Origin: an uncultured virus (IMG/VR IMGVR_UViG_3300032167_000116)
Lineage: Duplodnaviria > Heunggongvirae > Uroviricota > Caudoviricetes
Virus record (IMG/VR): IMGVR_UViG_3300032167_000116
Coordinates: 1 to 64,000 of that record
DNA: 64,000 nucleotides
Strand: one strand, 5' to 3'
This document shows, piece by piece, positions 1 to 41,873 of this stretch. The notes under the pieces were generated by a model that saw only the letters and a list, made by a program, of their open reading frames with translations, ran no database searches and was not told the origin of the DNA. Position numbers and translations under genes: made by a program. Position 1 is the first letter of the stretch, and the number at the start of each line of letters is the position of its first letter.

Positions 1-1111
1 CCGCAGCATCCTTTCCGTCCTTCCCATCCCGGACAGTGACACTGAATGCACTGACCGTCTTTGCAGTGAATGATTCCACGATGCCACCAAGGACCAATTT
101 GTTTGCAGCAGGTTCAAGCAGATCAATTGACAGCTTCCTGACCAACAGATTCTGATTGATTCCGTGCGGATTGCTTGTCACATTCACATATGTTCCCACA
201 TGGAAAGATGTCACCGTCTTATCAATTGCCGCAAGATCGGCTGCTGAAAGTTCGATGATTTCCGGTGTATTGACAAGTGAAGCAAGATGTGCTTTCGCCT
301 TCCGCAGAAGGTTTGAAGCAATTGTGACATCATCCCATATATTTGTTGCAAATATCATGCCATACTCTTTGACCGCATCTTCATCGAAGATATAGTCAAG
401 GCCATCATTCACAGATTCGATTGTCAGTCTTTCTTCGGATCCTTCAAGCTTCGCACCAAGTGGAATCAGTGCCGTTGATATTTCATCACCCTTCCGGATC
501 CGCTTCATTTCAAGCAGATTCTTTGCAAACTCAATCTTCTGTGCTGACAGCAGTGTGAAGTCATTCAAATAATCAATGTAGCTGATATTTTCCTGCCTTC
601 TGATGTCCACATATCCACCATATTTGTTGATAAGTGATTCAGTAATGACTTCCCAAGTCTTCTTGTAGTCATTGGAAGTCATTGAAACTGTTTCCCCGGC
701 ATCCGTCACAGTGACATTTCCCAATGTGAACTGACGATCTGCATCAACCTGTGCATTGTGTTCTGAAATAAGCTTCTGAAGGAATTCTGTGATGCTTCCG
801 GTGAATTCATATGGCCTGATGACTGAATCAATCAGGAAGGCCATTTCCCCTTCACATTCCACATACTTTTCATTGTAGAATCCTATTTCATCATTCAGCA
901 CTCTTCCCCGGAACAACAAATAATCATCCTGATAGACAGTGATGATTGATTTCATCTTCCTGATGAATTCATATGTTGGATGATCCGGATAGATCGTGAA
1001 TGTGAAGTATCCTGTTTTGTTCAGTTCCAAATCTACCTTCGGGGAAAAGATCTTGTATTCTTCCAAACGGTCATCATAAAGCAGGAATGAATCACAAAGT
1101 ACCCGGTACAT
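1..1111 (-). CDS. Tail endopeptidase/Tal-like baseplate hub protein (module A), truncated by the window edge
   Basis: Translated by hand: starts MYRVLCDSFLLYDDRLEEY, homologous to 37664..39253, and runs off the edge in ...VRDGKDGKDAA. Confidence 0.85.
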   Translation of the reverse strand, partial: MYRVLCDSFLLYDDRLEEYKIFSPKVDLELNKTGYFTFTIYPDHPTYEFIRKMKSIITVYQDDYLLFRGRVLNDEIGFYNEKYVECEGEMAFLIDSVIRPYEFTGSITEFLQKLISEHNAQVDADRQFTLGNVTVTDAGETVSMTSNDYKKTWEVITESLINKYGGYVDIRRQENISYIDYLNDFTLLSAQKIEFAKNLLEMKRIRKGDEISTALIPLGAKLEGSEERLTIESVNDGLDYIFDEDAVKEYGMIFATNIWDDVTIASNLLRKAKAHLASLVNTPEIIELSAADLAAIDKTVTSFHVGTYVNVTSNPHGINQNLLVRKLSIDLLEPAANKLVLGGIVESFTAKTVSAFSVTVRDGKDGKDAA

Positions 1112-1112
1112 A

Positions 1113-1751
1113 TCACAACCCCCTTTCGATGTATATGAAGGTTGCTGTGCCTGCTCCGTCTAATAGAATTGTATTTTCCCCATTTACCAACCGAACCGCA
1201 GGAAGGTCATATCTGCCTTCAGAAAGCGAATAGAAATTTGATCCGAAGGTCAGATCCACTTCCCCGGTGATGTCTATTGTCGGCATCACACTTCTTTTGC
1301 TGTTCGTGAGAATGACCGTTTTCGGACCGTTCACCGGTGCTGTCACTACCGTTTCAGATAGCTTTGTTTTGTACGGATCACAATCGCAATCAATTGTCAA
1401 CTTTCCGATATTCTTATCAGCTTTCCATTCTGACACACTGATTCGCCCGGTATAATACCACTCCGGATCATCATCAAGAACGATCTGCATCTTCTGTCCA
1501 TGCAAGGCATCCTGTATATGTGAAAACTGATCCATGAAATCAGACTGCGGAACAATGCTTGAAAACTCAAAGGACAGATTCCGATTGTTATATTTAACTT
1601 CTCCGAAAACTTCCGTTAAATCAAGAACACCATCACCGCCCGGAATCTCAATGGTTTCCGTTTTTGGTGATGGTGTTCCAATTGTCTTTTGTGAAAGGAT
1701 AAGGGAAAAATCACGGTATGAATGAAAATCCCCAAAATTTACACCTTTCAT
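1113..1751 (-). CDS. Distal tail protein (Dit-like), module A
   Basis: 212 aa, MKGVNFGDFHSY...IPGGDGVLDLTE; lies directly upstream of the Tal-like gene; close homologue at 39255..39893. Confidence 0.8.
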   Translation of the reverse strand: MKGVNFGDFHSYRDFSLILSQKTIGTPSPKTETIEIPGGDGVLDLTEVFGEVKYNNRNLSFEFSSIVPQSDFMDQFSHIQDALHGQKMQIVLDDDPEWYYTGRISVSEWKADKNIGKLTIDCDCDPYKTKLSETVVTAPVNGPKTVILTNSKRSVMPTIDITGEVDLTFGSNFYSLSEGRYDLPAVRLVNGENTILLDGAGTATFIYIERGL

Positions 1752-1793
1752 ATAACCTGCCTTTCTTTGCAGTTTAGCAAGTTATCTTTTGTT

Positions 1794-2246
1794 TTATTCC
1801 GTTACTGCTTCCCATCCCTGCGGATATTCAGAAGGCTTCCAAACATTGTTGTCAATCAAGGAACGATATACAACATCATCTTCGGTGCAACAATCCCCTG
1901 TGCCATAAGGACTTGTGGAAATTGCCACATACGGAAGTGCGTGTTTCGGATCCTGTGACCACTTGAATCCCCACTGTGCAGGCAAATCTTCCGGTTCCGC
2001 TGTGAATACAGTGCTGTCATACGGCTGCAACAGCTTCACAACTCTGCCCTGCGGAGAACGACACACAAAACCCACCGGACGATCAAGCATATTGCACTTT
2101 GCACATGCTGCATAGAAAGAAGGAATGAAACCATATTCTTCATACAGTTCGGTTCCGGTCATACTCTCTGCTTTCTCCTGCAATTCCTCTGCAACTTTTC
2201 TTCCATACTTTCGCATGGTGTCTAACACAAAATCTTTGCTTGTCAT
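1794..2246 (-). CDS. Tail-associated protein with a putative carbohydrate-binding (CBM5/12-like) C-terminus
   Basis: YGTGDCC..DDVVYRSLIDNNVWKPSEYPQGW motif; tail locus. Confidence 0.55.
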   Translation of the reverse strand: MTSKDFVLDTMRKYGRKVAEELQEKAESMTGTELYEEYGFIPSFYAACAKCNMLDRPVGFVCRSPQGRVVKLLQPYDSTVFTAEPEDLPAQWGFKWSQDPKHALPYVAISTSPYGTGDCCTEDDVVYRSLIDNNVWKPSEYPQGWEAVTE

Positions 2247-2620
2247 ACCTCATTCACCCCTTCCTCGATTGCGAGTGCCATTTCATCCCACACGTTACTG
2301 TCGGAAGACGGTGTTTCGGGTTCCGGTGTCGGAATCTCCGGAATCTCTCTCGGAGTAAACTCCACAACCTCAGTTCCGTCCTCATTCAGTACAATGTCAC
2401 AGAACCCTTTCGTTTCAAGAATATCTGCAACCATATCATCGGGAACAACCGCATAATCTTCATACGGATTTTCACTCCATGCGGAATTAGTCTGAATGTC
2501 CCTCACCGCATACTCTCCCGTAGTTCCCTTGGAAATAACACAGAAAGGATTTACCCTCTGCGGAATTTCAACGATTTCTTCCTCAATCGGAGTTTCGATA
2601 TTTTCTAAGATTTCGCTCAT
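2243..2620 (-). CDS. Acidic tail-fibre-associated hypothetical protein
   Basis: RBS AGAAAGGAG; homologue at 40335..40649. Confidence 0.7.
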   Translation of the reverse strand: MSEILENIETPIEEEIVEIPQRVNPFCVISKGTTGEYAVRDIQTNSAWSENPYEDYAVVPDDMVADILETKGFCDIVLNEDGTEVVEFTPREIPEIPTPEPETPSSDSNVWDEMALAIEEGVNEV

Positions 2621-2634
2621 GGTATGCTCCTTTC

Positions 2635-3309
2635 TTATAACAGCTCATAATAATAGCTTCCGCCACTAGCATTAAACAGTTCCGATGTTGTAGCCATATA
2701 CAAATTTCCTCCACCATCTCTCGTCCAATACGCATCTGAGCCAGTAACTACCACACCACCCTTTCTTCCGATATATCCGCTTTCTGTTACGATTGCAAAA
2801 TCTTCCGAACTAACCCTTCTAACCATGATACAGTTACCAACTCCACCGACTTTTACAGTTCTTGCCGTAGCACTACCATTTCCAGTGTAAGTGCCAGTAG
2901 GCTTGTTGCCAGTGTGGAGAAGGTCACTTACTACACCACCTGTACTCATAAATGCAGGGTTGTTGATTGCAGAAAAGCCCAAATAACCCATATCGCCAAC
3001 CGTACTCTTATACTGAACGTAATTTACTCCATGTGTTGGATTTGTATTGTTTAAGGTTAATGTTGCCGCTTGTGCAGTCTTGACTTCCATTGTCGCACTA
3101 TTAACAAGCGGTAAGTAGTTCGCAAGGTCAACCGCTATTCCTAACCTCTGCCAATATGCTGTGTTGCTGTCCGATGGTGTCTGCCCGGTGCAAGCCTGCT
3201 TGCATACCCACGATGCCCCGGAATGGTTTACAATATCAAGCATTGCGTATGTAGTGGATGCCGAATAGTCACCCTTCGGCATCAATAAAATTCTTCCTGC
3301 GTTTTCCAT
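2635..3309 (-). CDS. Putative tail fibre/receptor-binding protein (module B)
   Basis: Starts MENAGRILLMPKGDY, with the ATG overlapping the upstream TAA. Has the fibre-type LLHTGNKPTGTYTGNG motif and variable segments versus 40664..41308. Confidence 0.7.
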   Translation of the reverse strand: MENAGRILLMPKGDYSASTTYAMLDIVNHSGASWVCKQACTGQTPSDSNTAYWQRLGIAVDLANYLPLVNSATMEVKTAQAATLTLNNTNPTHGVNYVQYKSTVGDMGYLGFSAINNPAFMSTGGVVSDLLHTGNKPTGTYTGNGSATARTVKVGGVGNCIMVRRVSSEDFAIVTESGYIGRKGGVVVTGSDAYWTRDGGGNLYMATTSELFNASGGSYYYELL

Positions 3310-3446
3310 TATCGCACCCCCCATTCGAGATTTCCGCTTTGGTTATTTACTGCGAACACATACTTCGGTGCATTGTATTCCAAATTCCCGGTTGTAAAGT
3401 TCACAGCAAATTGTGTGTTGTGTGTTATCTGCCGGACTTCTTCCAA
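3124..3446 (+). repeat. 323-bp direct repeat, copy 1 (copy 2 at 41123..41445)
   Basis: Compared by eye: 3 mismatches (3137, 3160, 3395) and an identical core at 3161..3394. Confidence 0.95.
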
Positions 3447-3719
3447 GGCATCCACACACACTTCTTCACTTGCCTTTGCCTTGTTTTCACTTGCCGCCGC
3501 CGCGCTTGCACTTCCTGCCGCGGCATTTGCCGATGCCTGCGCATTTGCCGCACTTGCCGCCGCTTCCGTGATGGGTGCCTGCATATTCAAATCAAGTTCG
3601 ATTATGCGATTATCCAGTTCATCAATCGCGGCATCCATCTTGTTCATGTTTGTTTCGTTCAATGGCGTTTTCCCGGAAGGATAGTTTTCCCATTCAATCC
3701 GCCTGTACGCTTTCTGCAT
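3309..3719 (-). CDS. Tail-tip/fibre adaptor-like protein with an Ala-rich coiled coil (module B)
   Basis: WENYPSGKTPLNETNMNKMD motif seen in phage fibre N-termini; homologue at 41308..41697. Confidence 0.7.
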   Translation of the reverse strand: MQKAYRRIEWENYPSGKTPLNETNMNKMDAAIDELDNRIIELDLNMQAPITEAAASAANAQASANAAAGSASAAAASENKAKASEEVCVDALEEVRQITHNTQFAVNFTTGNLEYNAPKYVFAVNNQSGNLEWGVR

Positions 3720-3891
3720 CTTTTGCCACCTCGCTTTCCGCTTCCGTCTGCAAAGCTATTGCAACCTGCCGCCGCACTGCCGCAAGGGTGTTTTCCACTA
3801 CCATTTCGACTATACAGGGCGGCAAGCCGCTTTTATTTATCGTGTTCACCAAATCCTCTTGAAACTTCTTCGTTGCTGTGTTGATTCCCAT
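3694..3891 (-). CDS. Small conserved tail-module protein
   Basis: 65 aa; the homologue at 41666..41869 has the same overlap with the downstream gene. Confidence 0.7.
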   Translation of the reverse strand: MGINTATKKFQEDLVNTINKSGLPPCIVEMVVENTLAAVRRQVAIALQTEAESEVAKDAESVQAD

Positions 3892-3894
3892 GCC

Positions 3895-5781
3895 TTACAC
3901 CACCTTTGCTTCAAGTGCTTCCAATCTTTCATTGATTACCGCAATCTTTCCCTGCACCCAACCTGTACTTGCAATATTGCCGTACTTATAACCACTTTCC
4001 GCTTGATAACCATTCGCGGACATAATATTGATGTTTCCGATAGTGGTATATGAAATGGTTGTATTTGCGCTATTCAACGAAACCGATGCGGAAATAGAAT
4101 CATTGGTTGTCAAAACACGGTACCCATCCACATAAAAACCGCCTGTTCCCGGCGTTACAACTCGAAGCTGATTGTTGTATAGTTCAATTCGAGAAACGGT
4201 ATTTCCGCCACTTCTAAACCAAACAGCATGGGAACCGTAAATAATTTCATTTCCATTGCTTGCAGTAACCTCAATACCGGAATCCCCTATCTCAACAGTA
4301 TGATAAGAGTTTTTGATTTTAAGATTTCCGTTTGCATCAATGGAGAAATTTCCGCCGCCTGCCGAAACATAGCCATCAAGATTGATTTGCCCTGCTGTGA
4401 TAGTAATTTCATTCAACGCAATGTCAATCATGGTATCTACTTCGCCTGCGGTAACGCGAAGGGAAATCTGATCCGAAAGTTCCGTGATGCTCGATGCAGT
4501 ATTATTCGCCAAATCTTCCACAGATAGATTTATGGCATCCGCAGTCTGCTTTATTTCAGAACTCAACCCTTTGTTTACATCCTCAATCCGGGATTTCGTT
4601 TCTTCCACCGTCCGGGAAAGGATGTTGGTCTTTCCCTTCAACTGCAAAATGGACTGTTGCACCGAATTTACATTGTCGGAATAGGTTTCTTCGCCGTTTG
4701 CATCGTAGGTGTCAAACAACGCCTGTATGCCCTTCAATGTGCGCTCCAAAATGTAGGTTTCCACGATTTGCCGCTGTGTCACTATGCGGATTCCGCTTCC
4801 GACTTCCATGCACGGATTGCCGATTGCTGTTACTCTTGCCGGGCGATACCATAAAACACTGATAATGTCAAATAGCTTCTGCCCGATTGCTTCCAGTGCC
4901 GCCGCATCCTTGCCATACACAAGGAAATTATCTTCAACGATATAGCAATTCTCACCATTGCCGATGATGCACCCGATATCGTTTTCTTCCTGCCGGATTT
5001 GCAGTTTCCCGATTCGCTTTGTGGTGTAATCTTCGTACTTGCATTCCTTGTAGTAATGCGCGGATATGGTTTCGGTACCGGAAGGAAACAAATCTTCCGC
5101 CGGGAATAATTCGTTCGAAGGGAAAAGCCCTGCCACAAATTCTTCAAGCACGACATACTGCATCTTTCCACTCCGCCCGATATGCCCGAAGCATCCGTTG
5201 ATTTCGCAAATAGCCGAAAGCACATCTTTTCCACTTAACACTTTCGGATCAATAGTACGCTCCACAACCATTTCATCATTTGGCAGGGTGATTTCTTCCT
5301 GCTCCACGCCAAAATGCTCCATGAAGGAATCGCGGAACTCCCGAAGGGTGATTGTGCTGTCCTCTTTCGGAAGAATGCTGTTATACCATGCCGCCACATC
5401 CGCTTTGATGATATCGTACATGGCATCATGCGCCACAATATCCCGGAATCGTCTGTCTGCTGTCGGTTTGTCGGATGTTACCTTATAGGTGCCAAGCACA
5501 AAAGGTTCCACAATATCCCCGACATACATTGACACCGTAAAGGTTTCCCCGATAAGCGGAATCACATTGCCAATGATGCGCAGCTTAAATACCGATGCTT
5601 CGCAGGAACCGAAACGAAGTTCCGGTTCCGAACAAAGGCTTTCGGAGATTTCCATGCTTTCCGATACAATATCTTCGTTGCGAAGCGTGACAGAAAGATT
5701 CGGGAAATGGATAATCAGTCTTTTGGCAATGCCCGACTGATTGAAAAGTTCCTTAAATTCTTTTGTATCTGCCATCGTCAA
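3895..5781 (-). CDS. Tail-tip/baseplate hub (Tal-like) protein with a coiled-coil region (module B)
   Basis: 628 aa; ESLCSEPELRFGSCEAS N-terminal hub, SSEIKQTADAI coiled coil, ITITAGQINLDG motif; homologue at 41874..43928. Confidence 0.75.
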   Translation of the reverse strand: MTMADTKEFKELFNQSGIAKRLIIHFPNLSVTLRNEDIVSESMEISESLCSEPELRFGSCEASVFKLRIIGNVIPLIGETFTVSMYVGDIVEPFVLGTYKVTSDKPTADRRFRDIVAHDAMYDIIKADVAAWYNSILPKEDSTITLREFRDSFMEHFGVEQEEITLPNDEMVVERTIDPKVLSGKDVLSAICEINGCFGHIGRSGKMQYVVLEEFVAGLFPSNELFPAEDLFPSGTETISAHYYKECKYEDYTTKRIGKLQIRQEENDIGCIIGNGENCYIVEDNFLVYGKDAAALEAIGQKLFDIISVLWYRPARVTAIGNPCMEVGSGIRIVTQRQIVETYILERTLKGIQALFDTYDANGEETYSDNVNSVQQSILQLKGKTNILSRTVEETKSRIEDVNKGLSSEIKQTADAINLSVEDLANNTASSITELSDQISLRVTAGEVDTMIDIALNEITITAGQINLDGYVSAGGGNFSIDANGNLKIKNSYHTVEIGDSGIEVTASNGNEIIYGSHAVWFRSGGNTVSRIELYNNQLRVVTPGTGGFYVDGYRVLTTNDSISASVSLNSANTTISYTTIGNINIMSANGYQAESGYKYGNIASTGWVQGKIAVINERLEALEAKVV

Positions 5782-6152
5782 TTCTCCTTTAACTTAACAA
5801 GGATTTCACCATACCGGATTCCGCCTGCGGCGTGCTTGTGTGGTGTTTTCATATCTTCCACACGGAAAACACCTGTTGCATATGCTCCGGTTGTGTCGTT
5901 CCAATATTCCACAAATACATTGCGTTCCGGAAATGCAGACATAATCGCAAGATGTTCTTCCATGTCATGTTCCCGGATGGTGAAATTTATTTCCATCTTC
6001 TTTACCGGGCTTAATTCCTCATGCGGATTGCCTGCGGCATCGTAATAGGATGCAAGTACGCGGCTTTTCGGCATGGAATTATAGCTTCCGCGCTTAATCA
6101 TAAAATCACTAATGATGGTTCCATTGACTTTGATTCTATAACCTTGATACAT
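5778..6152 (-). CDS. Small distal-tail-like protein (module B)
   Basis: 124 aa, between TMP-B and the hub gene, in the position and size class of compact Dit proteins; homologue at 43925..44305. Confidence 0.6.
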   Translation of the reverse strand: MYQGYRIKVNGTIISDFMIKRGSYNSMPKSRVLASYYDAAGNPHEELSPVKKMEINFTIREHDMEEHLAIMSAFPERNVFVEYWNDTTGAYATGVFRVEDMKTPHKHAAGGIRYGEILVKLKEN

Positions 6153-6163
6153 ACTGAACCCCC

Positions 6164-8449
6164 TTACGCAAACGCCGGATTCCCGGTTTTCTGTGTGTAT
6201 TCACGCGCTCTGTCACGCACTACACGGAAAATGCCGCTTTCGTCCGTTTCGATTCTCTGTGTATTCTGCAATTCCGGTATTACCTCGCGGATAGCTTCAA
6301 CAACCGCATAGGAAAGACGGTCATAATCAATTCCGCCGCCGATGCCCTGCATTGCCATATCCTGCGCAACCCTGCCAATCCACTTTTCGTTCTGATCTAA
6401 CGGAACAACCGCTTCTGCGCCGTTTCCTTCAAGGAATCCAACCTGCCCTTTTTCAAGGATGCCGCCGCGCTCCAGTTTCGGAATCAGCGGAATGTTGATG
6501 CCCTTGCCGCCTATTTCCGGAACCCAATCCGGAATCTGTAATTTGTTCAATCCGCCAATCAGCGCATTCACCGCATCAATAATGAGATTGATAGGCGTTT
6601 TTACTGCCGTTACCAAGCCTTCAAAAATGCCTGTCACAAAGTCAACCAACGCCTGCCAAGCCTTCTCCCAATCTCCGGTGAAAACTGCGGTGATAAAGTC
6701 AATAATTCCGGTAAGACAAGGCTTTAAGGTGTTTTCCCACATATTCTTGATATGTTCGAAACAAGTATCAACCGCCGGACCGATGAAGTTTGTAAACACT
6801 TCTTCGAATACAGGTGCCAAGACTTCATCAATGAATTTGCCGATTGCTTCAAAGCACGGCTTCAAGTGTTCTTCCCAAATTACACCGATATCAGAAAAAC
6901 AGCCCGAAACAAATTCCTTGATTTCCGGCATCTTCTCGGAAAATACATCACGCACGGTGCCAACGCAGGATTGAATCAGTTCCCAAATCGGCGCACCTAA
7001 TGTTTCCCATGTTGTGGAAAGCACATCCCAAAGCCCGGTGAAAAGCCCTTCGATGTTAACGAAGGATTCTTCGAAGGTGGCTTCCGTTCCAAGCAATCCG
7101 CCTGCAATCATGTTCCAAATTTGCGCAAAAAGCCCGGTCACGGCTTCCAGTAATACCGGGAACGCCGCCGCAAGCCCTTCGGCAATCTGTGATAAAATCT
7201 TCGGAAGCTGCTCGACAATAAGCTGAATAATATCCGGCAATGCTTCAATCAGTGCCAATGTCAACTGCACTGCACAATCAATCAAGGAAGTAATAATTCC
7301 GGAATCGACTATGCCCTCAATCAGTCCCGGCAGGGCATCGCATAGCATTTCCATCAACTGCGGAAGCGCACCAACGATTGCTTCAAATATCTTCATTGCC
7401 CCATCAATAAAAAGCGGAAGAACATCAATCAATGCTCCAAGAATATCCGGAAGCGCATCTGCAAGGCTTCCTATCAAGGACACCGCCGCAGAAATAACCG
7501 TGGGCAATAACGAAGAAATCAATTTCGGGATAGCTTTTGCGATTTTCGGTGCCAATTTCGGTATCAATTCGACAATCTTTTTCAAGATTATTTCTACCCT
7601 CGGAATCACATTGCCTGCCACGGTGATTGCACTTTCGCTGAATAGGTCAAGCAATCCGCCAATATCGGCATTTTCATTTCCCAATCCTGCGACAAGGTTT
7701 TTCCATGCGGATTTCATGGACGAAATAGAACCGGAGATTGTGGAACTTGCTTCCTTCGCCGTGGTTCCTGTGATACCAATTTCCGTTTGTATTACATGGA
7801 TTGCATCTACTACATCCGCATAACTGGAAATGTCGTATTCAATCCCGGAGATTGCCTGCGCATCCCGAAGAAGGCGTTGCATTTCTTCCTTGGTTCCGCC
7901 GTAGCCCAACTTTAAATTGTCAAGCATGGTGTAGTTCTGCTTTGCGAAGCCTTGATAAGCATTTTGGATGCTTTCCATGCTCGTTCCCATCTTGTTTGCA
8001 TTGTCGGACATATCCGTGATTGCCAAATTCGCCTTTTCTGCCGCCTTTGCTGTGTCACCGTCCAAACTCTGAATCAAGGATGCAGAAAAGGATGTGACGG
8101 TTTCCATGTACTCATTCGCGGACATTCCGGCTGTTTTATATGCGTTTTCCGCATATTTTAGTACCGTTTCTCCGCTGTTCTTGAAAAGCGTTTCTACACC
8201 GCCTACAAGCTGTTCATAGTCTGCATATCCATCCAATGCACTTTTGGTAAGTGCCACAACCGCCGCGCCACCTGCCGCAAGCCCTGCGGCAACGGTCTTT
8301 CCGACTTTCACCGCCGCTGAACCGACTTTGCCAAATGCCGATCCGATTTTCCCATGCGATTTTTCTGCCTTATCGACAGTTTCATCAATAGCTGCATTCG
8401 CTCCGCTGTTGTCAATAGCTACCGTTCCAAGTAGCCTAAAAAGTTCCAT
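6164..8449 (-). CDS. Tape measure protein B
   Basis: 761 aa; MELFRLLGTVAIDN start, YADYEQLVGGVETLF/QGFAKQNYTMLDNLKLGYGG TMP motifs, amphipathic repeats, GAEAVVPL motif. Confidence 0.9.
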   Translation of the reverse strand: MELFRLLGTVAIDNSGANAAIDETVDKAEKSHGKIGSAFGKVGSAAVKVGKTVAAGLAAGGAAVVALTKSALDGYADYEQLVGGVETLFKNSGETVLKYAENAYKTAGMSANEYMETVTSFSASLIQSLDGDTAKAAEKANLAITDMSDNANKMGTSMESIQNAYQGFAKQNYTMLDNLKLGYGGTKEEMQRLLRDAQAISGIEYDISSYADVVDAIHVIQTEIGITGTTAKEASSTISGSISSMKSAWKNLVAGLGNENADIGGLLDLFSESAITVAGNVIPRVEIILKKIVELIPKLAPKIAKAIPKLISSLLPTVISAAVSLIGSLADALPDILGALIDVLPLFIDGAMKIFEAIVGALPQLMEMLCDALPGLIEGIVDSGIITSLIDCAVQLTLALIEALPDIIQLIVEQLPKILSQIAEGLAAAFPVLLEAVTGLFAQIWNMIAGGLLGTEATFEESFVNIEGLFTGLWDVLSTTWETLGAPIWELIQSCVGTVRDVFSEKMPEIKEFVSGCFSDIGVIWEEHLKPCFEAIGKFIDEVLAPVFEEVFTNFIGPAVDTCFEHIKNMWENTLKPCLTGIIDFITAVFTGDWEKAWQALVDFVTGIFEGLVTAVKTPINLIIDAVNALIGGLNKLQIPDWVPEIGGKGINIPLIPKLERGGILEKGQVGFLEGNGAEAVVPLDQNEKWIGRVAQDMAMQGIGGGIDYDRLSYAVVEAIREVIPELQNTQRIETDESGIFRVVRDRAREYTQKTGNPAFA

Positions 8450-8475
8450 AAGGGATTCACCCCCTTCTTTTGTTC
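8450..8475 (-). promoter_or_regulatory. Conserved RBS hairpin ahead of TMP-B (GAACAAAAGAAGGGGGTGAATCCCTT-ATG)
   Basis: Identical at 46433..46458; AAGGG can pair with CCCTT. Confidence 0.55.
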
Positions 8476-8508
8476 ATTAAAAAACACACGGCGTGTGTTT
8501 CCGTGCGT

Positions 8509-10518
8509 TTATCGTGCGTTTCCTCTGCTTGCTGTCCGGTACATCCTTCCAAGCCTTGCATCAACCGCAGGTGCCAATTCGCCAACCAATGCGCCGCTAT
8601 CAAGCCGGATTTGCATACCGAATAGATTTTCAAGCAAAGCAATTATTCTGTTCATCCGGGTAATGATATCCGCATCATTTCCCGGCTTTGTTTCTGTTCT
8701 TTGTAACTCGTTCAAATCTTCCGCAACATTGGAAAGCCATGCCCGGTTGTTTTCCAACGGCACAACAGCTTCCGCACCGGAACCCTCTAAGATGCCGACT
8801 TGCCCTTTCTCCAGTACACCACCTTTTGCAAGGCGCGGAAGGGAGATTTTCGACACGGTTCCGACATTGATTCCCGGAAGTTTGTTTGCAAGGCGGATTG
8901 CACTGTTTATCAGTCCAATTCCCTTATTGATAGCACCTTCCACCAAGGATAAGGCACCATTCATTCCTTTTTTCACGGCATTTCCCATTGCGTTTCCGAT
9001 GGAAGTTCCGATTGAACCGAATTTGCTTTTCACCTTGCCCCAAAGCCCGGAGAAGAAGGAACCCCAACTGCTGAAAGCGGATTTGATATTGTTCCATGCG
9101 TTCCGGAAGGTATTGCGGAACCACGATGCAACCGAACCAAAAACGCCACGGATGCCGGACCATATTCCGGAGAAGAAAGAACGCGCTCCATTCCATATAG
9201 ACTTGACACCGTTCCATGCGTTCCGGAAAATTTGGGAAAACCACGATTTCACAGAATTAAAAGTAGACTTGATTCCGTTCCATATCCCCCGGAAGTACCC
9301 TGTCACCGCGGACCATGTTTTCTTAATAGCCGCCCACGCATCCGAAAAGTATTTCCGGATTGCCTTCCATGCGGAATTTGCAAGGGATTTTATCGTGTTC
9401 CATGCGGATTTCCAAAAGTTCCGGAAGCCATCGACATTGTTCCAAAGGTAAATAAACGCCGCCACAAGCCCCACAACAGCCGCCACAACCAAGCCAATAG
9501 GATTTGCCATCAATACCGCATTAAAGGCAATCATGGCAGTTCTAACAACCTTCACGGCGTTTGCCGCTGCGGTCATTATCTTTCCCCATGAAATAATTAA
9601 AACGAAGGCACCGATTGCCGTTGTTGCGCCTATAATAACGCCAACCCATGTTTGCACGGTTTCTTCGTTCTGCTTTATCCATGTGATAGCATCACGGAAC
9701 CAATTCACCATATCTTCAAGGACCGGGATTGCCTTTTCTGCAAGTGATGCAATCGCATTCCGAAGTGCTGTCATTATCGGTTCCCCGATTTCACCAACCT
9801 TCGCCATTGCATCCGATAAGCGTTCCTGCGCCTTCCGGGATTCCATGATATCCTTGTTGGTTTCTTTGTACTGCACGGATGCTTCGCTGTAAGTGCCTTT
9901 TAAGGTCTTTACAATCAAATCCTGCCGTTCTTCCTCGGTTTTCAGCTTCGCCAACTTATCGTTGAAATCCTCAACCGTGATTCCGGACCATTCCAAGGCA
10001 TCCGCAAGGCTTCCTTGCACTTCTCCAAGGGATGCAGAATGATTGATGCCCTCTGCAAGTCCTTCCAACGGCAACGATTCTCCGAAAGTGGCATATACTC
10101 CGGTCAAAATACCTGTTAGATCGGACAGTTCCTTTTCGTTGTCCGCAATCAATGCAAGATGCTGTGATGCTTCCACCGCCTGCCCGGAATCTCCAAGCAC
10201 GGCGTTAAGTTCTGAATAGGTGTCCTTTGCGGCTTTGGAACTGTGTCCTGCTGTCTGAAATGCCGCATCAAGCAGGTTCATTTCCGCCCTGTACTCTCTT
10301 GTACTTTCTACCGCACCGACAAATGCACCGCCAATGGCAAGCCCTGCCGCCCCGATGCCGATTGCAATATTCTTCGCAACACCGCCGATTTTTGAAAAGG
10401 CGGATTCGGTTTCGTTTGCGGATTCATGCGCCTTTTGTGTGGTGCCTTCCAGTGCGTTGTTCGCTTCTGTATTGTCTATTGCTATTGTTCCCAATAACTT
10501 AAACAATTCCATAAGCAT
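8509..10518 (-). CDS. Tape measure protein A
   Basis: 669 aa (probable start MELFKLLG at 10512); LADALEWSG, MANPIGLVVAA, Trp/Phe 11-residue repeats; follows the tail chaperones. Confidence 0.92.
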   Translation of the reverse strand: MLMELFKLLGTIAIDNTEANNALEGTTQKAHESANETESAFSKIGGVAKNIAIGIGAAGLAIGGAFVGAVESTREYRAEMNLLDAAFQTAGHSSKAAKDTYSELNAVLGDSGQAVEASQHLALIADNEKELSDLTGILTGVYATFGESLPLEGLAEGINHSASLGEVQGSLADALEWSGITVEDFNDKLAKLKTEEERQDLIVKTLKGTYSEASVQYKETNKDIMESRKAQERLSDAMAKVGEIGEPIMTALRNAIASLAEKAIPVLEDMVNWFRDAITWIKQNEETVQTWVGVIIGATTAIGAFVLIISWGKIMTAAANAVKVVRTAMIAFNAVLMANPIGLVVAAVVGLVAAFIYLWNNVDGFRNFWKSAWNTIKSLANSAWKAIRKYFSDAWAAIKKTWSAVTGYFRGIWNGIKSTFNSVKSWFSQIFRNAWNGVKSIWNGARSFFSGIWSGIRGVFGSVASWFRNTFRNAWNNIKSAFSSWGSFFSGLWGKVKSKFGSIGTSIGNAMGNAVKKGMNGALSLVEGAINKGIGLINSAIRLANKLPGINVGTVSKISLPRLAKGGVLEKGQVGILEGSGAEAVVPLENNRAWLSNVAEDLNELQRTETKPGNDADIITRMNRIIALLENLFGMQIRLDSGALVGELAPAVDARLGRMYRTASRGNAR

Positions 10519-10522
10519 TTTC

Positions 10523-10819
10523 CTATTCCGGCACGAAGCCTTTCAACATATCCCTTGATTCACTTATCGCATTGCTGATTTCCTCGTTTGTCATGTACTG
10601 TTCGCCGTGCTTCGGCTTTTCGCATTCCCTCACATAATCATCGAAGGACATATCCCCCCAAACTTTATGCAAGTAATACTGCCACCGCGCTTCATGCACC
10701 TTTTCATCGGCAATGGTTTTCAGTATCTCACAGACAAATTCGTGAAACTGTTGCAATCTGATAAATTCATCCATAATCAAAAATGGACTTGCATATCTCT
10801 GTGATAGCAAGTCCATCAA
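10523..10819 (-). CDS. Tail assembly chaperone, frameshifted C-terminal extension (gpT-like)
   Basis: In the -1 frame relative to 10831..11193, and open from the slippery site TTTTTTC at 10867-10861. Confidence 0.8.
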   Translation of the reverse strand: MMDLLSQRYASPFLIMDEFIRLQQFHEFVCEILKTIADEKVHEARWQYYLHKVWGDMSFDDYVRECEKPKHGEQYMTNEEISNAISESRDMLKGFVPE

Positions 10820-10830
10820 TTTGATATATC

Positions 10831-11193
10831 CTACCGATTGAACAACTTCGTAACTCGTCCGAAAAAATCGCGGAAATCCTCTTTCATTACAATCTCAACA
10901 ATAAGTTCGCCGTAATCTGCAAACGGCATCTTTGCAATATCCGTCTGCTTCATCCCGGTAAGACTTGCAACGAACATCTGAATTTCTTTTTCCGCCTTCG
11001 GGATGTTAGAAATCACGATTCCTGCAATGTCAAATAAAACATTCAAACCGACTTTCTCAACATCTTTTGCTTCGCCCTTGAAATCCTCAACATTGAAGCA
11101 TTCCTTGAACTCCCGGATTCCGATTGCGGAAATAATCTTACAGATTGCGCCCATATCGGATGCAACCAACGGTCTTAATTCGTAATTCTCCAT
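10831..11193 (-). CDS. Tail assembly chaperone (gpG-like)
   Basis: Between the major tail protein and TMP; ends DFRDFF over the slippery site. Confidence 0.8.
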   Translation of the reverse strand: MENYELRPLVASDMGAICKIISAIGIREFKECFNVEDFKGEAKDVEKVGLNVLFDIAGIVISNIPKAEKEIQMFVASLTGMKQTDIAKMPFADYGELIVEIVMKEDFRDFFGRVTKLFNR

Positions 11194-11218
11194 TGTTCAA
11201 TCTCCTTTACTTTATATC

Positions 11219-11806
11219 CTAGGCAGTCTGCTTCGGATAAAGAATGCGCCACGGAAGGGTGTCTGCTTCCGGGGAAACATCTGCTACACACTGGAATGTT
11301 CCGGTGAATACGCCTGCTTCCTTGTTCTTGCCCTCTACCTCGAAGCCGGAAGTACAAATTGCCTGCTCGAAGATAATAATGATCGGCGTTCCATTGGTCT
11401 TTTTGCCTACATAAGCAAGATTCTCGATGTAATCACCCTCGGTGATTCTTGCGCGAGAAGTGATTTCGGAAAAGCCTTCGTAAACCGTGGAATCCGCAAC
11501 ATCACCAACAACGCACATCTTCAAGATATCCGGTGTCATTTCAACAAAGTTCACTTCCATCGTTGCCGTTTCACCGACTTTGTGCTTTAAGCCCTTAACA
11601 GCTACAAGCGCACCGTCTACTTCGATATCCATAAACTCCGGAACAATGCTTACCTTGGAACCGCCGGAAGTAGCACCGATAAGAGATTCTTCAAAATTCC
11701 ACTTGCCATCCGCCAATGTCAAGCCCTTATGGATGGTGCCTGCACCAAGCATGATGTTCTCCGGAGTTTTTGCGGTAATACCGCTAGACTTTAATTCTTC
11801 GTACAT
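11219..11806 (-). CDS. Major tail protein
   Basis: IGATSGGSKVSI..DIEVDG motif; synteny; homologue at 49148..49900. Confidence 0.85.
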   Translation of the reverse strand: MYEELKSSGITAKTPENIMLGAGTIHKGLTLADGKWNFEESLIGATSGGSKVSIVPEFMDIEVDGALVAVKGLKHKVGETATMEVNFVEMTPDILKMCVVGDVADSTVYEGFSEITSRARITEGDYIENLAYVGKKTNGTPIIIIFEQAICTSGFEVEGKNKEAGVFTGTFQCVADVSPEADTLPWRILYPKQTA

Positions 11807-12198
11807 TATTTCACGCTCCATTCTTTTACATCTAAATTGATTTGGATTCTTTTAAGTTCGGCATCCTCTGTCGGAACAACCAAACTGTTTGCATAAAAAA
11901 TAGCCACTGCGGAACCATTGTCCGCAATGACTGTATTTCCGCCCACTTTGTTAAAATAGGCGGATATTGCTTCTTTCGCATCTTCCAATGCAAGCCACGA
12001 TCCGCGCGTGAACCCGGACAGAAGGAAGGATGCTTCCTGCAAGCCGGATTCATCGGTTGATTCGATTTCTTGGTATTCACCTACAAAGTAGGTTTCCGGG
12101 GCATCTTCATCCTCTGCTACATCGTAACGCATAAAGGAATAGGCAAGCCCCAAGGAATCCATTGCATCGGATATGATTTTCAATCCTGCTTTGCTCAT
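11806..12198 (-). CDS. Tail terminator/completion protein
   Basis: Synteny; homologue at 49897..50289 (LKRIQINLD.KEWSVK). Confidence 0.7.
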   Translation of the reverse strand: MSKAGLKIISDAMDSLGLAYSFMRYDVAEDEDAPETYFVGEYQEIESTDESGLQEASFLLSGFTRGSWLALEDAKEAISAYFNKVGGNTVIADNGSAVAIFYANSLVVPTEDAELKRIQINLDVKEWSVK

Positions 12199-12605
12199 TT
12201 CATCCTCACTTTCAGCACCTCTTTTGCCCTTCTTATCAAGGCAGGTTTCAAACTGATAAAGGCACGATGGAATGCCCGGTGCGGCTTTTTACCATAGGTA
12301 TGATGCCACTTGCCCTTCTCGTCTTGGTAGTACCAACCGCCTTTTCTGCCGTTGCCGTGAAGTGCGAAATCACCTGTACCAAATTCTTCCCATATTGCAT
12401 TCTGCAATGGGCTTCCGATGGTGCAAACACCTTCGCCTTCATCAACTCTGTAATTCCATGAACCTTTAAGCTGTCCGCTACCAACGCGCGAATTGTCCGC
12501 TACCTGCGAAGATAAAGATTCTCCGGCTTCGTACAGATAGGCAATCGCAGCATCGTTCAATACCGCTTTTACATGTGCGCTGTTGTCCGTAAATTGCACC
12601 GCCAT
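12195..12605 (-). CDS. HK97-gp10-like tail completion protein
   Basis: SGQLKGSW and AIWEEFGTG motifs. Confidence 0.8.
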   Translation of the reverse strand: MAVQFTDNSAHVKAVLNDAAIAYLYEAGESLSSQVADNSRVGSGQLKGSWNYRVDEGEGVCTIGSPLQNAIWEEFGTGDFALHGNGRKGGWYYQDEKGKWHHTYGKKPHRAFHRAFISLKPALIRRAKEVLKVRMK

Positions 12606-15970: not shown

Positions 15971-16243
15971 TCACTTCATCCCCTCTTTAATCTGTTTTAC
16001 AGCTTGGTTTGCTCCTGTGGATGCCAAACCGGAAACAATACCGACTGCGATTGCATCCAGTACATTGTTCGCCGGAAAGTCCGGGATAACAAACATTCCA
16101 ACAACGCCCAAAACACCGCCTAAAATGCCGACAATGGACGGAATGAAATTGTCCTTTACCTTCGGAAGCTGCTTGCAAAGCAATCCTACCAAATAGCAAA
16201 TAACCACGATTGCAACAACCGTTCCTACATTCGTAAAATCCAT
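15971..16243 (-). CDS. Holin
   Basis: 90 aa with 2-3 hydrophobic segments; GIVSGLASTGANQ motif. Confidence 0.85.
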   Translation of the reverse strand: MDFTNVGTVVAIVVICYLVGLLCKQLPKVKDNFIPSIVGILGGVLGVVGMFVIPDFPANNVLDAIAVGIVSGLASTGANQAVKQIKEGMK

Positions 16244-21382: not shown

Positions 21383-21862
21383 TTATGTAATTGTTATCCA
21401 ATGACAACCTGCACTTGTTCGGTGCGGTTTATCAAGAACCTGTTCAATGGCGCGTATGCGCCGATTGTACTTTTTTGCGGCTTCTGTCATTGTGTCGAAA
21501 ACCTCTCCGGTTTCAACATTCTTTACTTTCCGGCATCCGCCGCTGTGTGTGCCGCCCTTTGTGCAATTATATCCGTTTGGATATATACTGTCGTAGTGCT
21601 TTATCCAAAAGATTTCCTTTTCGCAGGCTTCTTCGTTCGTTGCCGCTTCGTCAATCTTTTCAATGGTGAAATTCATTTCGCCGTACTTCTCTATTGCTTC
21701 TTGCAATTTGAATCTGTGAATCGTTTTCACATTGTAGCAATGTTGCTTCCACCTTGCATCAATCGGCTTCATCGTTTTTCCGATGTAAACCTTTCCGTTC
21801 ACATCGTTTGTAATTTTGTATATGCTATACATTATTTTGTTTACCTTTCTTACATTATACAT
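21383..21862 (-). CDS. GIY-YIG homing-endonuclease-like protein with a NUMOD1-like C-terminus
   Basis: SIYKITN..KVYIGKT, R..QH, EIFWI, NGYN; ETGEVFDTMTEAAK. Confidence 0.85.
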   Translation of the reverse strand: MYNVRKVNKIMYSIYKITNDVNGKVYIGKTMKPIDARWKQHCYNVKTIHRFKLQEAIEKYGEMNFTIEKIDEAATNEEACEKEIFWIKHYDSIYPNGYNCTKGGTHSGGCRKVKNVETGEVFDTMTEAAKKYNRRIRAIEQVLDKPHRTSAGCHWITIT

Positions 21863-24183: not shown

Positions 24184-24677
24184 TCCGGCAATCTGTGGTT
24201 CTTCCTCTGCGAATAAATCGTCTTTAACTGCCGATAATTTGTAGTCATTGCCGCCGTAAGTTTAAAGCCGCACGGATTAGAATACAAAAGTCGCAAATAA
24301 TCTTCCGAATCCTGCGTTTCATTGTACCTATCCTTTAACTCGTTCATAATGGCAATCATACGCTTATCCGTATATTCGCTGTACTGATTGTCTAAATCGA
24401 ACTTCGCTATCCGGTGCATAGTAGATTGACTTGAAATAAAATCAAGAAAATGGTATCGTTCCGCTTCCGTCCATGCCTTAACAGTGAATGTCAAATCAAA
24501 CTGCACGATAATACCTGTCAAAAACTGATCGTGTCCGCTTCCCTTCTCGCAAACCGCAAGTTTATATGTAGTAGGTACAATTTTGCTGTTTAATTCTTCT
24601 ACCGTGGTTGCCATTGGGAACTTGCTGCCTCGCACGGCACTGTCGAATCCGTATACATTTACATTGCTTACTATCAT
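24114..24677 (-). CDS. Conserved phage protein, possibly a distant ThyX-like fold
   Basis: GHDQFL, EAERYH, SQSTMH and NYRQLK..QRKNHRLPEW motifs. Confidence 0.5.
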   Translation of the reverse strand: MIVSNVNVYGFDSAVRGSKFPMATTVEELNSKIVPTTYKLAVCEKGSGHDQFLTGIIVQFDLTFTVKAWTEAERYHFLDFISSQSTMHRIAKFDLDNQYSEYTDKRMIAIMNELKDRYNETQDSEDYLRLLYSNPCGFKLTAAMTTNYRQLKTIYSQRKNHRLPEWREFCAWVETLPYAEFITGKGE

Positions 24678-25096
24678 TTCAACGCTCCTTTCTGCATCTG
24701 CACATAGGCAAGGTATTTTCCGTAACTCATTCCCATTGCCTTTGCCTTGGCTTGTATCTCGTCAATGGTTTCGATGGGCTTCGGTTTCGGTTGCGCTTTT
24801 AGCATCAACCGTTCCGCCCTCATTTTTTCACGGTATACAGCACCCTGTTCCCTTGATCGCCTTTTGTTTCTCTCGGTATTGCATTCCGGACTACAAGTAA
24901 CGCTGTCGCATCTTTTCGCCTTGTACGCCTTGCCGCATTCAAGGCAGATTTTATCAAATTCCACCGGACCTAATTTCTTCCTCTCTTTGTGCGCCCGGTT
25001 CCTGCATCTTTGGGAACAATACTCCATTCTTCTTTCGTGTTGATTGCTTGCATCCACTTCAAAATTTCCGCCGCAATGCCTGCATTGTTTAATCAT
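24674..25096 (-). CDS. Cys-rich (two Zn-binding units) protein with a GMSYG C-terminal motif
   Basis: Paralogue of 26661..27131 and 58506..58967. Confidence 0.75.
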   Translation of the reverse strand: MIKQCRHCGGNFEVDASNQHERRMEYCSQRCRNRAHKERKKLGPVEFDKICLECGKAYKAKRCDSVTCSPECNTERNKRRSREQGAVYREKMRAERLMLKAQPKPKPIETIDEIQAKAKAMGMSYGKYLAYVQMQKGALK

Positions 25097-25823: not shown

Positions 25824-26674
25824 GCACCCCCAAATTGTTCTTTTAATGCCTGCGCCCTTCTGCGGATTTCTTCATCATTCGCCGCTGTTTTTGGGGCTCC
25901 CAACAATGCCGCTTCCAAATCTCCTATATCTTCCGAAGGTCTTTCCGGGAAATTATTAAACTGATTCTTTTTGTTCATCCACGAAGGAACGATTTCTTTT
26001 CTGCCCGGTTTCTCTGCATCCTTACGCGCCCAATTCCGGATGGTTGCATAGTGGCTTTTATAACTCTTTCCGGTTGATGCCACATAGGAAGAAAGTCTTT
26101 CGATACGATCCGGAAGGTCCGGATATTCTGCTTTCAGCTTTTCCATTTCCTCATCGGTAAGAAGTACATTTTTGTATTCACCGTATTTATGCTTGACAGG
26201 TTTCTTTTTCGGGGCAGGTGGTTCCGGTTCGGCAGAATCCGGAATAATATCTACTAAACTATCTTTACCTATACTATCCTTACCTATCCTATCCTGTGGC
26301 AACCGTTCGGCAACCACTTGGCAACCATTTGGCAACCAAGTGTAAGCGCCGTTTTCTTTGATATCCAAATGCGCCAATTCCTCTTGAAATGCTGTTGGTG
26401 TATATCTGTCTTTTCTTAGCGCGTTTGCCATTCTCCAATGCTTTATAACAATTACACCGTTTTCGAATTGATAGATATATCTTTTCTCTAAAAGTGCCTG
26501 TAAGTCTTGCACGCTTGCATGCGCTTTGAACATGGATATTGATACTTGATTGCAAAATCCATCATCATCCGCACTCATTGACAAATGGAGATATAATGCC
26601 TGCGCCGATGAAGATAACGCCATGAAATTATCATCATCCGTAACCTTCTTTGTAAACATTCTACGCTCCGCCAT
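25820..26674 (-). CDS. Replisome organizer/replication initiator
   Basis: MAERRMF..SAQALYLHLSMSADDDGF motif; internal iterons. Confidence 0.85.
   Translation of the reverse strand: MAERRMFTKKVTDDDNFMALSSSAQALYLHLSMSADDDGFCNQVSISMFKAHASVQDLQALLEKRYIYQFENGVIVIKHWRMANALRKDRYTPTAFQEELAHLDIKENGAYTWLPNGCQVVAERLPQDRIGKDSIGKDSLVDIIPDSAEPEPPAPKKKPVKHKYGEYKNVLLTDEEMEKLKAEYPDLPDRIERLSSYVASTGKSYKSHYATIRNWARKDAEKPGRKEIVPSWMNKKNQFNNFPERPSEDIGDLEAALLGAPKTAANDEEIRRRAQALKEQFGGA
26298..26337. repeat. Putative origin iterons of phage 1
   Basis: GGCAACC at 26298, 26309, 26320 and 26331 (11-bp period) inside the initiator gene, next to CTATCC repeats. Confidence 0.75.
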
Positions 26675-37654: not shown

Positions 37655-37663
37655 TTATGCCCC

Positions 37664-39253: not shown

Positions 39254-39254
39254 C

Positions 39255-39893: not shown

Positions 39894-39908
39894 AAAACCT
39901 GCCTTTCT

Positions 39909-40331: not shown

Positions 40332-40334
40332 AGT

Positions 40335-40649: not shown

Positions 40650-40663
40650 GGTATGCTCCTTTC

Positions 40664-41308: not shown

Positions 41309-41445
41309 TATCGCACCCCCCATTCGAGATTTCCGCTTTGGTTATTTACTGCGAACACATACTTCGGTGCATTGTATTCCAAATTCCCGGTTGCAAAGTT
41401 CACAGCAAATTGTGTGTTGTGTGTTATCTGCCGGACTTCTTCCAA
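41123..41445 (+). repeat. 323-bp direct repeat, copy 2
   Basis: Matches 3124..3446 at an offset of 37,999 bp. Confidence 0.95.
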
Positions 41446-41869: not shown

Positions 41870-41873
41870 GTTA

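Follow-up and report, generated by a model that had tools for sequence, protein, structure and literature searches.

The textbook siphophage has one tape-measure protein (TMP) and one tail tip, and its host range changes through mutation, swap or inversion of the fibre. The C-terminus of the TMP sits in and nucleates the hub, and the tube polymerises on the ring of the distal tail protein (Dit) around the TMP. Canonical tips, such as those of SPP1, TP901-1, 80alpha and lambda, combine the gene order major tail protein (MTP), chaperones, TMP, Dit, Tal and fibres with tube/Dit and gp27-like folds and with a TMP end matched to the hub. Here we describe a locus that has this gene order and, in models, these folds, and in which the sequence class of the TMP end follows the hub, but that differs from the canonical tip in having two TMPs and two Dit/Tal/fibre sets per tube gene, the second set being nested in the first. 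It lies in the first 64,000 bases (hereafter the window, meaning the whole stretch analysed) of the 65,784-base, metagenome-derived virus record IMGVR_UViG_3300032167_000116 of IMG/VR, where PHROG and Pfam scans of the open reading frames (ORFs) reveal two related siphophage prophages in tandem, both on the minus strand.

The first prophage (P1) reaches from the record start to about 31 kb, with a Tal gene truncated at position 1, and the second (P2) spans 34.2 kb to the window end. Both carry terminase, portal, scaffold, capsid and neck genes of their own together with one MTP apiece, and their structural genes are 67-82% identical at the DNA level. A second, larger contig (114,938 bases) holds both prophages at equal spacing. 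Judged by gene content, each prophage appears to encode two complete cognate sets for tail initiation, with a single tube protein, chaperone pair and head in common. The ORFs named in the preliminary description of this DNA are all present in P1 and P2 on the minus strand with the lengths and order given there, and PHROG and Pfam matches bear out its count of one MTP and one chaperone pair with two TMPs and two tip modules per prophage.

Gene content and predicted folds of the two tip modules

The two sets are interleaved in the tail gene cluster of P1, all genes of which are on the minus strand. The sole MTP (11219-11821; 200 amino acids (aa); phrog_885, 7.8e-58) is followed by a chaperone-like ORF in the G position (10831-11193; 120 aa; phrog_1021, 1.7e-21) and a second chaperone-like ORF in the T position (10523-10819; 98 aa; phrog_1294, 2.6e-8), and it is the location of these two ORFs between MTP and TMP that suggests chaperone roles for them. 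The first tape measure, TMP1 or TMP-A (8509-10518; 669 aa), has an A-class C-terminus and matches phrog_58 (7.9e-63 over residues 23-587) plus 34 other tape-measure families. The second, TMP2 or TMP-B (6164-8449; 761 aa), has a B-class C-terminus and matches phrog_991 (9.6e-88), phrog_3981 (8.5e-83 over residues 21-684) and others. TMP-B stands directly 5' of the genes of module 2 (B), and TMP-A follows the chaperones, 7.3 kb from its presumed Dit in module 1 (A).

Module 2 of P1 begins with a DUF6711 protein (5778-6152; 124 aa; PF20458, 2.1e-18), a predicted minimal Dit-like ring protein, and a Tal-type hub (3895-5781; 628 aa; phrog_18190, 6.5e-167). Downstream of the hub are a 65-aa ORF lacking a Pfam match (3694-3891), the place of which is occupied by 66-73-aa ORFs in phages that have only module B, and a 136-aa protein (3309-3719) with matches to phrog_3279 and phrog_2012 (tail fibre / minor tail). 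These are followed by a 229-aa fibre-like protein (2635-3324; tail fibre phrog_5073, 3.1e-7, with a weak CBM_5_12 match under the Pfam cut-off), a 125-aa accessory protein (2243-2620; phrog_22773, 1.6e-8) and, immediately 5' of Dit A, a 150-aa accessory protein (1794-2246; phrog_18593). The 125-aa protein shares 67% amino-acid identity with its P2 counterpart, with a ratio of nonsynonymous to synonymous substitution rates (dN/dS) of 0.27. Relatives of the 150-aa protein, 133-144 aa long, precede Dit1 in many, not all, phages with the double layout. Module 1 then comprises the Dit (1113-1751; 212 aa; phrog_33, 4.5e-21), which is 79% identical between P1 and P2 (dN/dS 0.17), and the Tal (2-1111; PF06605 Prophage_tail, 4.8e-18; phrog_3558, 2.3e-122), of which 370 aa are visible before the record end; the rest of this Tal and a fibre are found on the larger contig (L003/L155).

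P2 repeats this gene order at 35714-49915, again on the minus strand. Its MTP (49148-49915; 255 aa; phrog_885, 2.2e-47) and a chaperone-like pair at 48390-49129 (133 aa at 48728-49129 and 106 aa at 48390-48710; phrog_1021 and phrog_1294) precede TMP1 (46470-48377; 635 aa; A-class C-terminus) and TMP2 (44318-46432; 704 aa; B-class C-terminus), both of which match many tape-measure PHROGs across most of their length. Module 2 consists of the DUF6711 protein (43925-44305; 126 aa; PF20458, 2e-17), the hub (41874-43928; 684 aa; phrog_18190, 1.2e-181), which is 75% identical to the P1 hub across residues 1-445, and fibre and accessory genes at 39909-41763 encoding 151, 219, 104 and 140 aa. The 140-aa protein, counterpart of the 150-aa accessory protein of P1, carries two CBM_5_12 modules (1.1e-12). 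Module 1 is complete here, with a Dit (39255-39893; 212 aa; phrog_33, 8.4e-17), a Tal (37664-39253; 529 aa; PF06605, 1.8e-21; phrog_3558, 5.7e-127) and a fibre (35714-37654; 646 aa; PF05895 DUF859, 1.4e-60; Gp53-like_C, 2e-6; phrog_372).

Structure models were built for the two key proteins of module 2 from alignments of 22 non-redundant homologues of each, drawn from related loci. The DUF6711 model (pLDDT 83.6) has the tail-tube/Dit beta-sandwich fold according to both Foldseek and VIA-align. Its VIA-align Z scores are 8.7 against the 80alpha baseplate chain 6v8i_AC, 8.0 against the monocin tip chain 9j1k_K and 7.9 against the 109-aa lambda tail-tip chain 8iyk_M, and Dits of T5, SPP1 and p2 score 7.5, 7.4 and 7.3. 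Genes of this type also hold a constant position between TMP and hub: a 100-190-aa gene abuts the hub gene in 78 loci, and does so twice in the window. Fold and position together thus suggest a ring-forming Dit role for the DUF6711 protein. At 124 aa it is a single domain, lacking the galectin-like C-terminal domain of classical Gram-positive Dits, and this absence rules it out as a Dit of the classical two-domain subtype. A small one-domain distal tail protein is known, namely the 121-aa DTP1 of Nocturne116 described in a portion of PMC13595954, and a Dit role is therefore open to a one-domain protein such as this one.

The model of hub residues 1-450 (pLDDT 80.6) adopts the four-domain gp27/Mu gp44 fold, with Foldseek matches to 3cdd (E 8e-14, TMt 0.60), Mu gp44 (1wru, 6e-12), monocin 9j1k_L (2e-10) and 80alpha 6v8i_AE (6.5e-8). 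At the level of families, the 628/684-aa protein has no PF06605 match, just phrog_18190 (unknown function) and Gp58 under the Pfam cut-off. By modelled fold and by position it is a predicted hub, one outside the Prophage_tail family. The 124-aa and 628-aa proteins had been proposed as Dit and hub in the preliminary description, and the tube/Dit and gp27-like folds of the models agree with that proposal.

Two side observations concern the tube and tape-measure genes themselves. The P2 MTP has about 60 extra N-terminal residues relative to the P1 MTP, and over residues 5-102 it matches other MTPs weakly a second time; either a partial duplication of the N-terminus or a wrongly called start may account for this. 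Within TMP-A of P1, positions 9040-9406 hold 120-nucleotide (40-residue) direct repeats of 73-86% identity (families D1, D3 and D7), and P2 TMP-A aligns with a gap where they sit. They are an ordinary length-variable tape-measure repeat block.

Tape-measure ends, single-module relatives and spread of the double layout

In an alignment of the four TMPs of the window, the N-terminus has invariant M-E-L-F, G, A-I-D-N and A-N, a G-A-E-A motif near the C-terminus is common to all, and the C-termini fall into the two classes A and B. The N-terminal motif and the two C-terminal classes are as first described, and the view that P1 and P2 are no fresh duplication is likewise borne out, since the two TMP-As are only 50% and the two TMP-Bs 29% identical and DNA identity is 67-82%. 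Several lactococcal phages are annotated with a TMP split by a homing endonuclease. We rejected such a split for the present pair: no endonuclease lies between the two genes, and each TMP has both the N- and the C-terminal hallmark motifs.

To assign each tape measure to a tip, we took every TMP located immediately before a tip module and clustered de novo the first large protein that follows it. This replaced a four-reference classification of hubs, which had left 30 of 105 TMPs unlabelled. After exclusion of six loci that are duplicates of other contigs, the matching set comprised 93 TMPs, among which 64 different C-terminal 60-mers occur. The C-terminal class of the TMP tracks the hub cluster, with no cross-class case among the 93. 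TMPs preceding the cluster of module-2 hubs (hubB; 38) are class B in 35 cases and variants B-like by eye in three; those preceding the Prophage_tail cluster are class A throughout (22/22); a third hub cluster goes with one class (17/17); and the phrog_538 cluster (14) goes with two related classes (10 and 4). Phages with one TMP follow the same pattern, the single TMP of Roseburia phage Jekyll having a class B end and those of L088, L089, L130 and L132 a class A end. In phages with two TMPs, TMP1 stays in class A, the class that goes with the distal Tal, irrespective of the type of module 2. We infer from these sequence classes that the TMP1 C-terminus pairs with the distal Dit/Tal and the TMP2 C-terminus with the adjacent hub. 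Since the TMP-A end is of the class found beside Dit and Prophage_tail Tal in single-TMP phages, and the TMP-B end of the class found beside DUF6711 and hub, TMP-B and module B would be nested between TMP-A and its own Dit, the arrangement that had been put forward from the window alone.

Relatives carrying just one of the modules, which the preliminary description proposed to look for, exist for both. Jekyll (LR596902) encodes one TMP, a 139-aa protein, a hub homologue (42.6% identity), a long fibre and then lysis genes, and has no match to Dit A or Tal A of the window. A search of IMG/VR with the hub N-terminus gave 80 loci, and the hub gene was recovered in 77; among the six genes upstream of it, a single ORF of 450 aa or more is present in 62 of these loci, two such ORFs in five, and no such ORF in ten. 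Hubs in these IMG/VR loci are 49-56% identical to that of the window and the single TMPs are 750-1453 aa long. Homologues of both Dit A and Tal A lie 3' of the hub in three of the 80 (L008, L009 and L078); two more (L010 and L087) have both TMPs and end before the Dit A/Tal A region. Jekyll and the 62 loci thus resemble the window in DUF6711, hub, B-class TMP end and an N-terminal fibre module, and differ in their single TMP, mostly with another N-terminus, and in having no Dit A/Tal A match. The fibre module is visible in the 136-aa protein of P1, which has phmmer matches to the first post-hub protein (231-1555 aa) in most hubB loci and, by sequence comparison, appears related to the N-terminus of post-hub fibres in phages with module B only.

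Module 1 stands by itself in Streptococcus prophage Javan422, Blautia phage NatCom_24097, NatCom_34192 and L130/L132, where one TMP (935-1020 aa) abuts the Dit and is followed by Tal and fibre. They share with the window a Dit of 212-220 aa, a Prophage_tail Tal and a fibre, and differ in having no second set. The A-class TMP end is common to the window and to the four members of this group whose TMP ends were read, L088, L089, L130 and L132, and L130 also shares the MTP family and the TMP N-terminal motif. The P1 MTP is 54% identical to the MTP of L130 and 30% to that of L012, a phage with module B only. Both of these MTPs belong to the MTP family of the window, and one tube family therefore serves both tips.

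Comparison with these relatives shows that TMP2 is a mosaic, with a backbone-like N-half and a tip-like C-terminal part. Residues 1-433 of P1 TMP-B are 50% identical to the single TMP of L130 and about 46% to TMP2s of other classes, and residues from about 400/470 to 760 align with TMPs of phages with module B only, which places the breakpoint inside the gene and not at its end. The N-terminal motif, moreover, is common to TMP1, TMP2 and single-TMP phages of the same backbone, and is absent from other phages with module B only. The TMP N-half thus travels with the backbone and the C-end with the hub. The 986-aa single TMP of L130/L132 joins an N-half like that of window TMP-B to a class A C-terminus, which suggests that tape measures recombine mid-gene in both directions; this arrangement might have arisen by collapse of the double layout, or might be ancestral to it. 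Lengths of the two tape measures are likewise uncoupled. One TMP1 cluster (14 loci, 579 aa) is paired with TMP2s of four C-terminal classes and 492-675 aa, and TMP1/TMP2 length pairs of 589/583, 589/781 and 703/583 occur on otherwise near-identical partners. Such independence argues against both proteins spanning one tube.

The paired synteny proved far more widespread than the single locus in which it was noticed. Searching IMG/VR with the N-terminus of Tal A gave 80 loci, of which 76 could be parsed and 41 were informative, meaning that the region from chaperones to Tal was visible. Two TMPs were counted automatically in 36 of the 41, and three more (L143, L150 and L151) are double on inspection, giving 39 of 41 with two TMPs and two Dit-Tal sets. 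The two loci that are truly single, L130 and L132, represent one phage type. The doubles comprise 17 TMP1 clusters at 90% identity or more. The layout is also found in the uncultured GenBank virome scaffold MT835521 and in contigs of metagenome-assembled genomes (MAGs) from other studies (L171, L172, L173 and L178); a further MAG contig, L176, combines two Dit-Tal pairs with a single labelled TMP and an ORF of 1,207 aa that bears no label. The MAG matches indicate Acutalibacteraceae and Oscillospiraceae as likely hosts. From these genomes the double layout appears to be the rule in this clade of gut phages.

Across the clade module 1 is constant, with a Dit of 212-215 aa, a Prophage_tail Tal and a DUF859-type fibre. 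Module 2 varies, being DUF6711 plus hub (the type of the window), a second Dit/Prophage_tail/fibre set, a short 140-aa Dit plus Tal, or a Dit of about 280 aa with a phrog_538 Tal of about 341 aa and two more proteins. All module-2 types tested open with a phrog_33 Dit gene, followed by a Tal-like one. Slot 2 looks like a plug-in host-range cassette, TMP2 and module 2 being swapped among near-identical backbones.

Both modules appear to be maintained by purifying selection. For TMP2, Dit2, Tal2, Dit1, Tal1 and fibre, dN/dS between L156 and L168 is 0.10-0.24; between L078 and L087 it is 0.15 for TMP1, 0.50 for DUF6711 and 0.39 for hubB; and between P1 and P2 it is 0.13-0.52 where dS is computable. 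Intact ORFs and dN/dS below one in both modules accord with the initial judgement that a decaying relic is unlikely, and neither module shows relaxed selection.

No DNA switch was recognised around the sets. We found no inverted repeats bracketing either tail module, the best pairs being 16-24 nucleotides long, 81-94% complementary and scattered, and no reverse transcriptase in the PHROG annotation of the submitted window ORFs. These results uphold part of the initial statement that neither an invertase nor a reverse transcriptase is present; the other part needs amending, as the large serine recombinase at 32303-33736 also matches the DNA invertase family phrog_125. Promoter-like sites between the sets are not in excess (16 found versus 20.8 expected) and none is conserved. 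No terminator common to P1 and P2 was found at the TMP1/TMP2 junction. In the TMP-A/TMP-B gap of P1, at 8475-8500 on the minus strand, there is a short weak hairpin with six T that P2 does not have; it might lower read-through or mean nothing. P1 and P2 carry one and the same strong Shine-Dalgarno-like site for TMP-B.

Two proposed kinds of tail from one genome

Gene content, the two sets, their folds, matching, conservation, spread, cassette exchange and selection were all computed here, and all of the evidence is metagenome-derived sequence. Established siphophage assembly, combined with two cognate sets, would most simply lead to two initiator complexes and hence to two classes of tail. The first complex would consist of TMP1 with the distal Dit, the Prophage_tail Tal and the DUF859 fibre; the second would consist of TMP2 with the adjacent DUF6711 ring, the gp27-like hub and its own small fibre and carbohydrate-binding proteins. 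The further steps, which we infer, are co-expression, compatibility of the rings with the single tube protein and the formation of two virion types: the late operon would supply both initiator complexes in one cell, the single tube protein would grow on either, and either kind of tail would join identical heads. An excerpt of PMC3556154 gives tail length as about 0.15 nm per TMP residue, and by this rule the tails of P1 would be about 100 and 114 nm long, with different tips, and those of P2 about 95 and 106 nm.

That one genome yields two kinds of tail, differing in tip and length, is in our judgement somewhat the better bet. The wider proposal, to which we would give an even chance, is that in this clade of gut siphophages one burst comprises two virion types that differ in tail length and host range. 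Slot 2 would be swappable, with the N-half of TMP2 fitting the resident tube and chaperones and its C-end fitting the incoming hub, and the outcome would be bet-hedging at the level of particle assembly without a DNA switch.

Several points weigh against two kinds of tail or soften the evidence for them. Tube proteins score equal to Dits against the DUF6711 model (Z 7-9 for both), and these equal scores mean that fold alone cannot separate a ring from a tube protein, location between TMP and hub adding the rest. The C-terminal class patterns were drawn up post hoc, with the data already seen, and the match between TMP2 end and module 2 could partly be plain linkage, since neighbouring genes are co-inherited. 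Near-identical loci drawn from a small number of large datasets are numerous, so that locus counts overstate independence and the 17 clusters are the safer figure. The double layout is absent from the named or cultured relatives whose tail regions were inspected, namely Jekyll, Javan422, NatCom_24097, NatCom_34192, Acutalibacter phage Fontainebleau, Flavonifractor phage Chenonceau and Butyrivibrio virus Arian, each of which has one TMP. Between P1 and P2, dS is saturated for several genes, and the values for MTP, T and Tal were not computable; closer pairs were used. Finally, a portion of PMC13595954 relates that the several distal tail proteins of some phages assemble as two rings of a single tail, and two Dit genes alone are thus no proof of two tails.

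The last point leads to the alternative that survives best, a single composite tail, in which both rings are stacked, both hubs and fibre sets share one tip and both TMPs lie in one lumen, giving each virion two receptor-binding systems. We regard it as unlikely, while recognising what speaks for it. It is well known that one virion can bear several receptor-binding proteins, and no regulatory break separates the two co-linear modules. Besides the two-ring tails, Nocturne116 is described in the same portion of PMC13595954 as mixing two distal tail proteins in one ring. A composite tail must nevertheless accommodate two sets each equipped with its own trimeric gp27-like hub and with a TMP whose C-terminus follows that hub, and each set suffices alone in single-TMP phages. 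The independently varying TMP lengths, with ratios of 0.83-1.33 on near-identical partners, fit one tube poorly. No solved tail with two hubs in series is among the fold matches, though no search was aimed at such structures.

A slightly less probable alternative, also unlikely, is that one set at a time builds infectious tails and the other is a spare recombination cassette or is expressed conditionally. The frequent exchange of module 2 among near-identical backbones is what a cassette in transit would show, and the weak hairpin with its T-run between TMP1 and TMP2, seen in P1 only, could be taken in the same sense. Yet many lineages have both sets intact and under purifying selection, a state that a spare without expression would lose. 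Nor is there a conserved promoter, terminator or invertible segment between the sets; P2 manages without the hairpin, and the strong Shine-Dalgarno-like site of TMP2 is identical in the two prophages.

It seems quite improbable that set 2 makes head-less, tailocin-like particles, as F-type tailocins are, while the virion uses set 1 alone. Chains of the monocin tip do appear among the fold matches of DUF6711 (9j1k_K) and hub (9j1k_L), but they are some among many, DUF6711 and hub form the sole tip in phages such as Jekyll, and nothing in the locus bars set-2 tails from the common tail-completion and head-joining proteins. An artefact (a chimeric assembly of two strains) or decay (a recent insertion being lost) can be put aside as most improbable, because even for a metagenome-derived record the order occurs twice in the window at 67-82% DNA identity, on the second, larger contig, in dozens of IMG/VR contigs from many samples, in a GenBank scaffold and in MAGs of other studies, and because all ORFs are intact with dN/dS below one.

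Genomic setting and known host-range systems

Between P1 and P2 lie a repressor (31692-32072, plus strand) and, in the integrase position, the large serine recombinase already mentioned, which matches integrase phrog_95. IMG/VR lists the record as 100% complete; its content is two adjacent prophages, with P1 truncated at the record start, and completeness estimates for such records can mislead. Megablast of window positions 1-12200 against the phage collection gave zero matches.

Other genes of the two prophages may be noted in passing, all on the minus strand. A holin-like gene (15971-16243; phrog_1129, 9.8e-23) lies within the P1 head-gene block and adjoins a 237-aa protein with a weak ferredoxin-like C-terminus; no endolysin was found among the scanned ORFs of P1 or P2. 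The minor head protein (SPP1 gp7-like) has 539 aa in P1 (16510-18129) versus 350 aa in P2 (53798-54850), and the extra C-terminal part in P1 matches phrog_7104, a family of unknown function. The P1 early region encodes a Mom-like DNA modification protein (28144-28593; phrog_1384, 5.5e-40). At the end of P2, a 374-aa protein (34210-35334) combines a DNA/RNA non-specific endonuclease domain (PF13930, 6.6e-21) with a weak Ada zinc-binding match; it could be a moron or a competition factor. Endonuclease genes occur at 21383-21862, 24674-25096, 26661-27131 and 58506-58967; one, for a GIY-YIG homing endonuclease, adjoins the P1 small terminase gene, and three HNH endonuclease-like genes are scattered across P1 and P2. 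A tRNA-Gly (tcc) called by ARAGORN at 56026-56098 lies inside the P2 portal ORF (54807-56321) and is probably a false call.

The dual sets point to a route of host-range change other than that of the textbook siphophage, namely two infectious kinds of particle per genome with no genetic switch. If this is true, host-range prediction from gut phage genomes would change, the TMP would be a two-part adaptor with its N-half fitted to the backbone and its C-end to the hub, and the locus would give phage engineering a natural scaffold on which tips can be exchanged. Should both sets prove to share one tail, that tail, having two hubs and two rulers, would still be new in structure. The locus is also an annotation trap, in which a second TMP and Dit/Tal set is easily mistaken for a duplication error or for two merged phages.

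No description of two TMPs and two tip sets in one phage was found in searches of the open full-text literature. The portions of PMC8407745, PMC3556154, PMC3447690 and PMC7953286 that came up concern just tape-measure chaperone pairs or unrelated uses of the words.

Systems in which one genome gives virions of different receptor specificity are nevertheless well established, with inversion of the G segment of Mu and of the C segment of the phage that is itself named P1, and with diversity-generating retroelements. In these systems the change is confined to a fibre gene and depends either on an invertase and its inverted repeats or on a reverse transcriptase. Unlike them, the window doubles the whole initiator (ruler, ring, hub and fibres) without flanking inverted repeats, and the only recombinase is the integrase between the prophages. 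The dual tailspikes of K1-5/SP6 and the dual receptor-binding proteins of lactococcal 936 phages reportedly put several receptor-binding proteins on each virion and widen the host range. All receptor-binding proteins of such phages sit on one baseplate with one TMP, whereas each set of the window has its own TMP, ring and hub. The component parts of the locus are thus of known kinds, and its doubled, nested and cassette-like architecture is a new variation on them.

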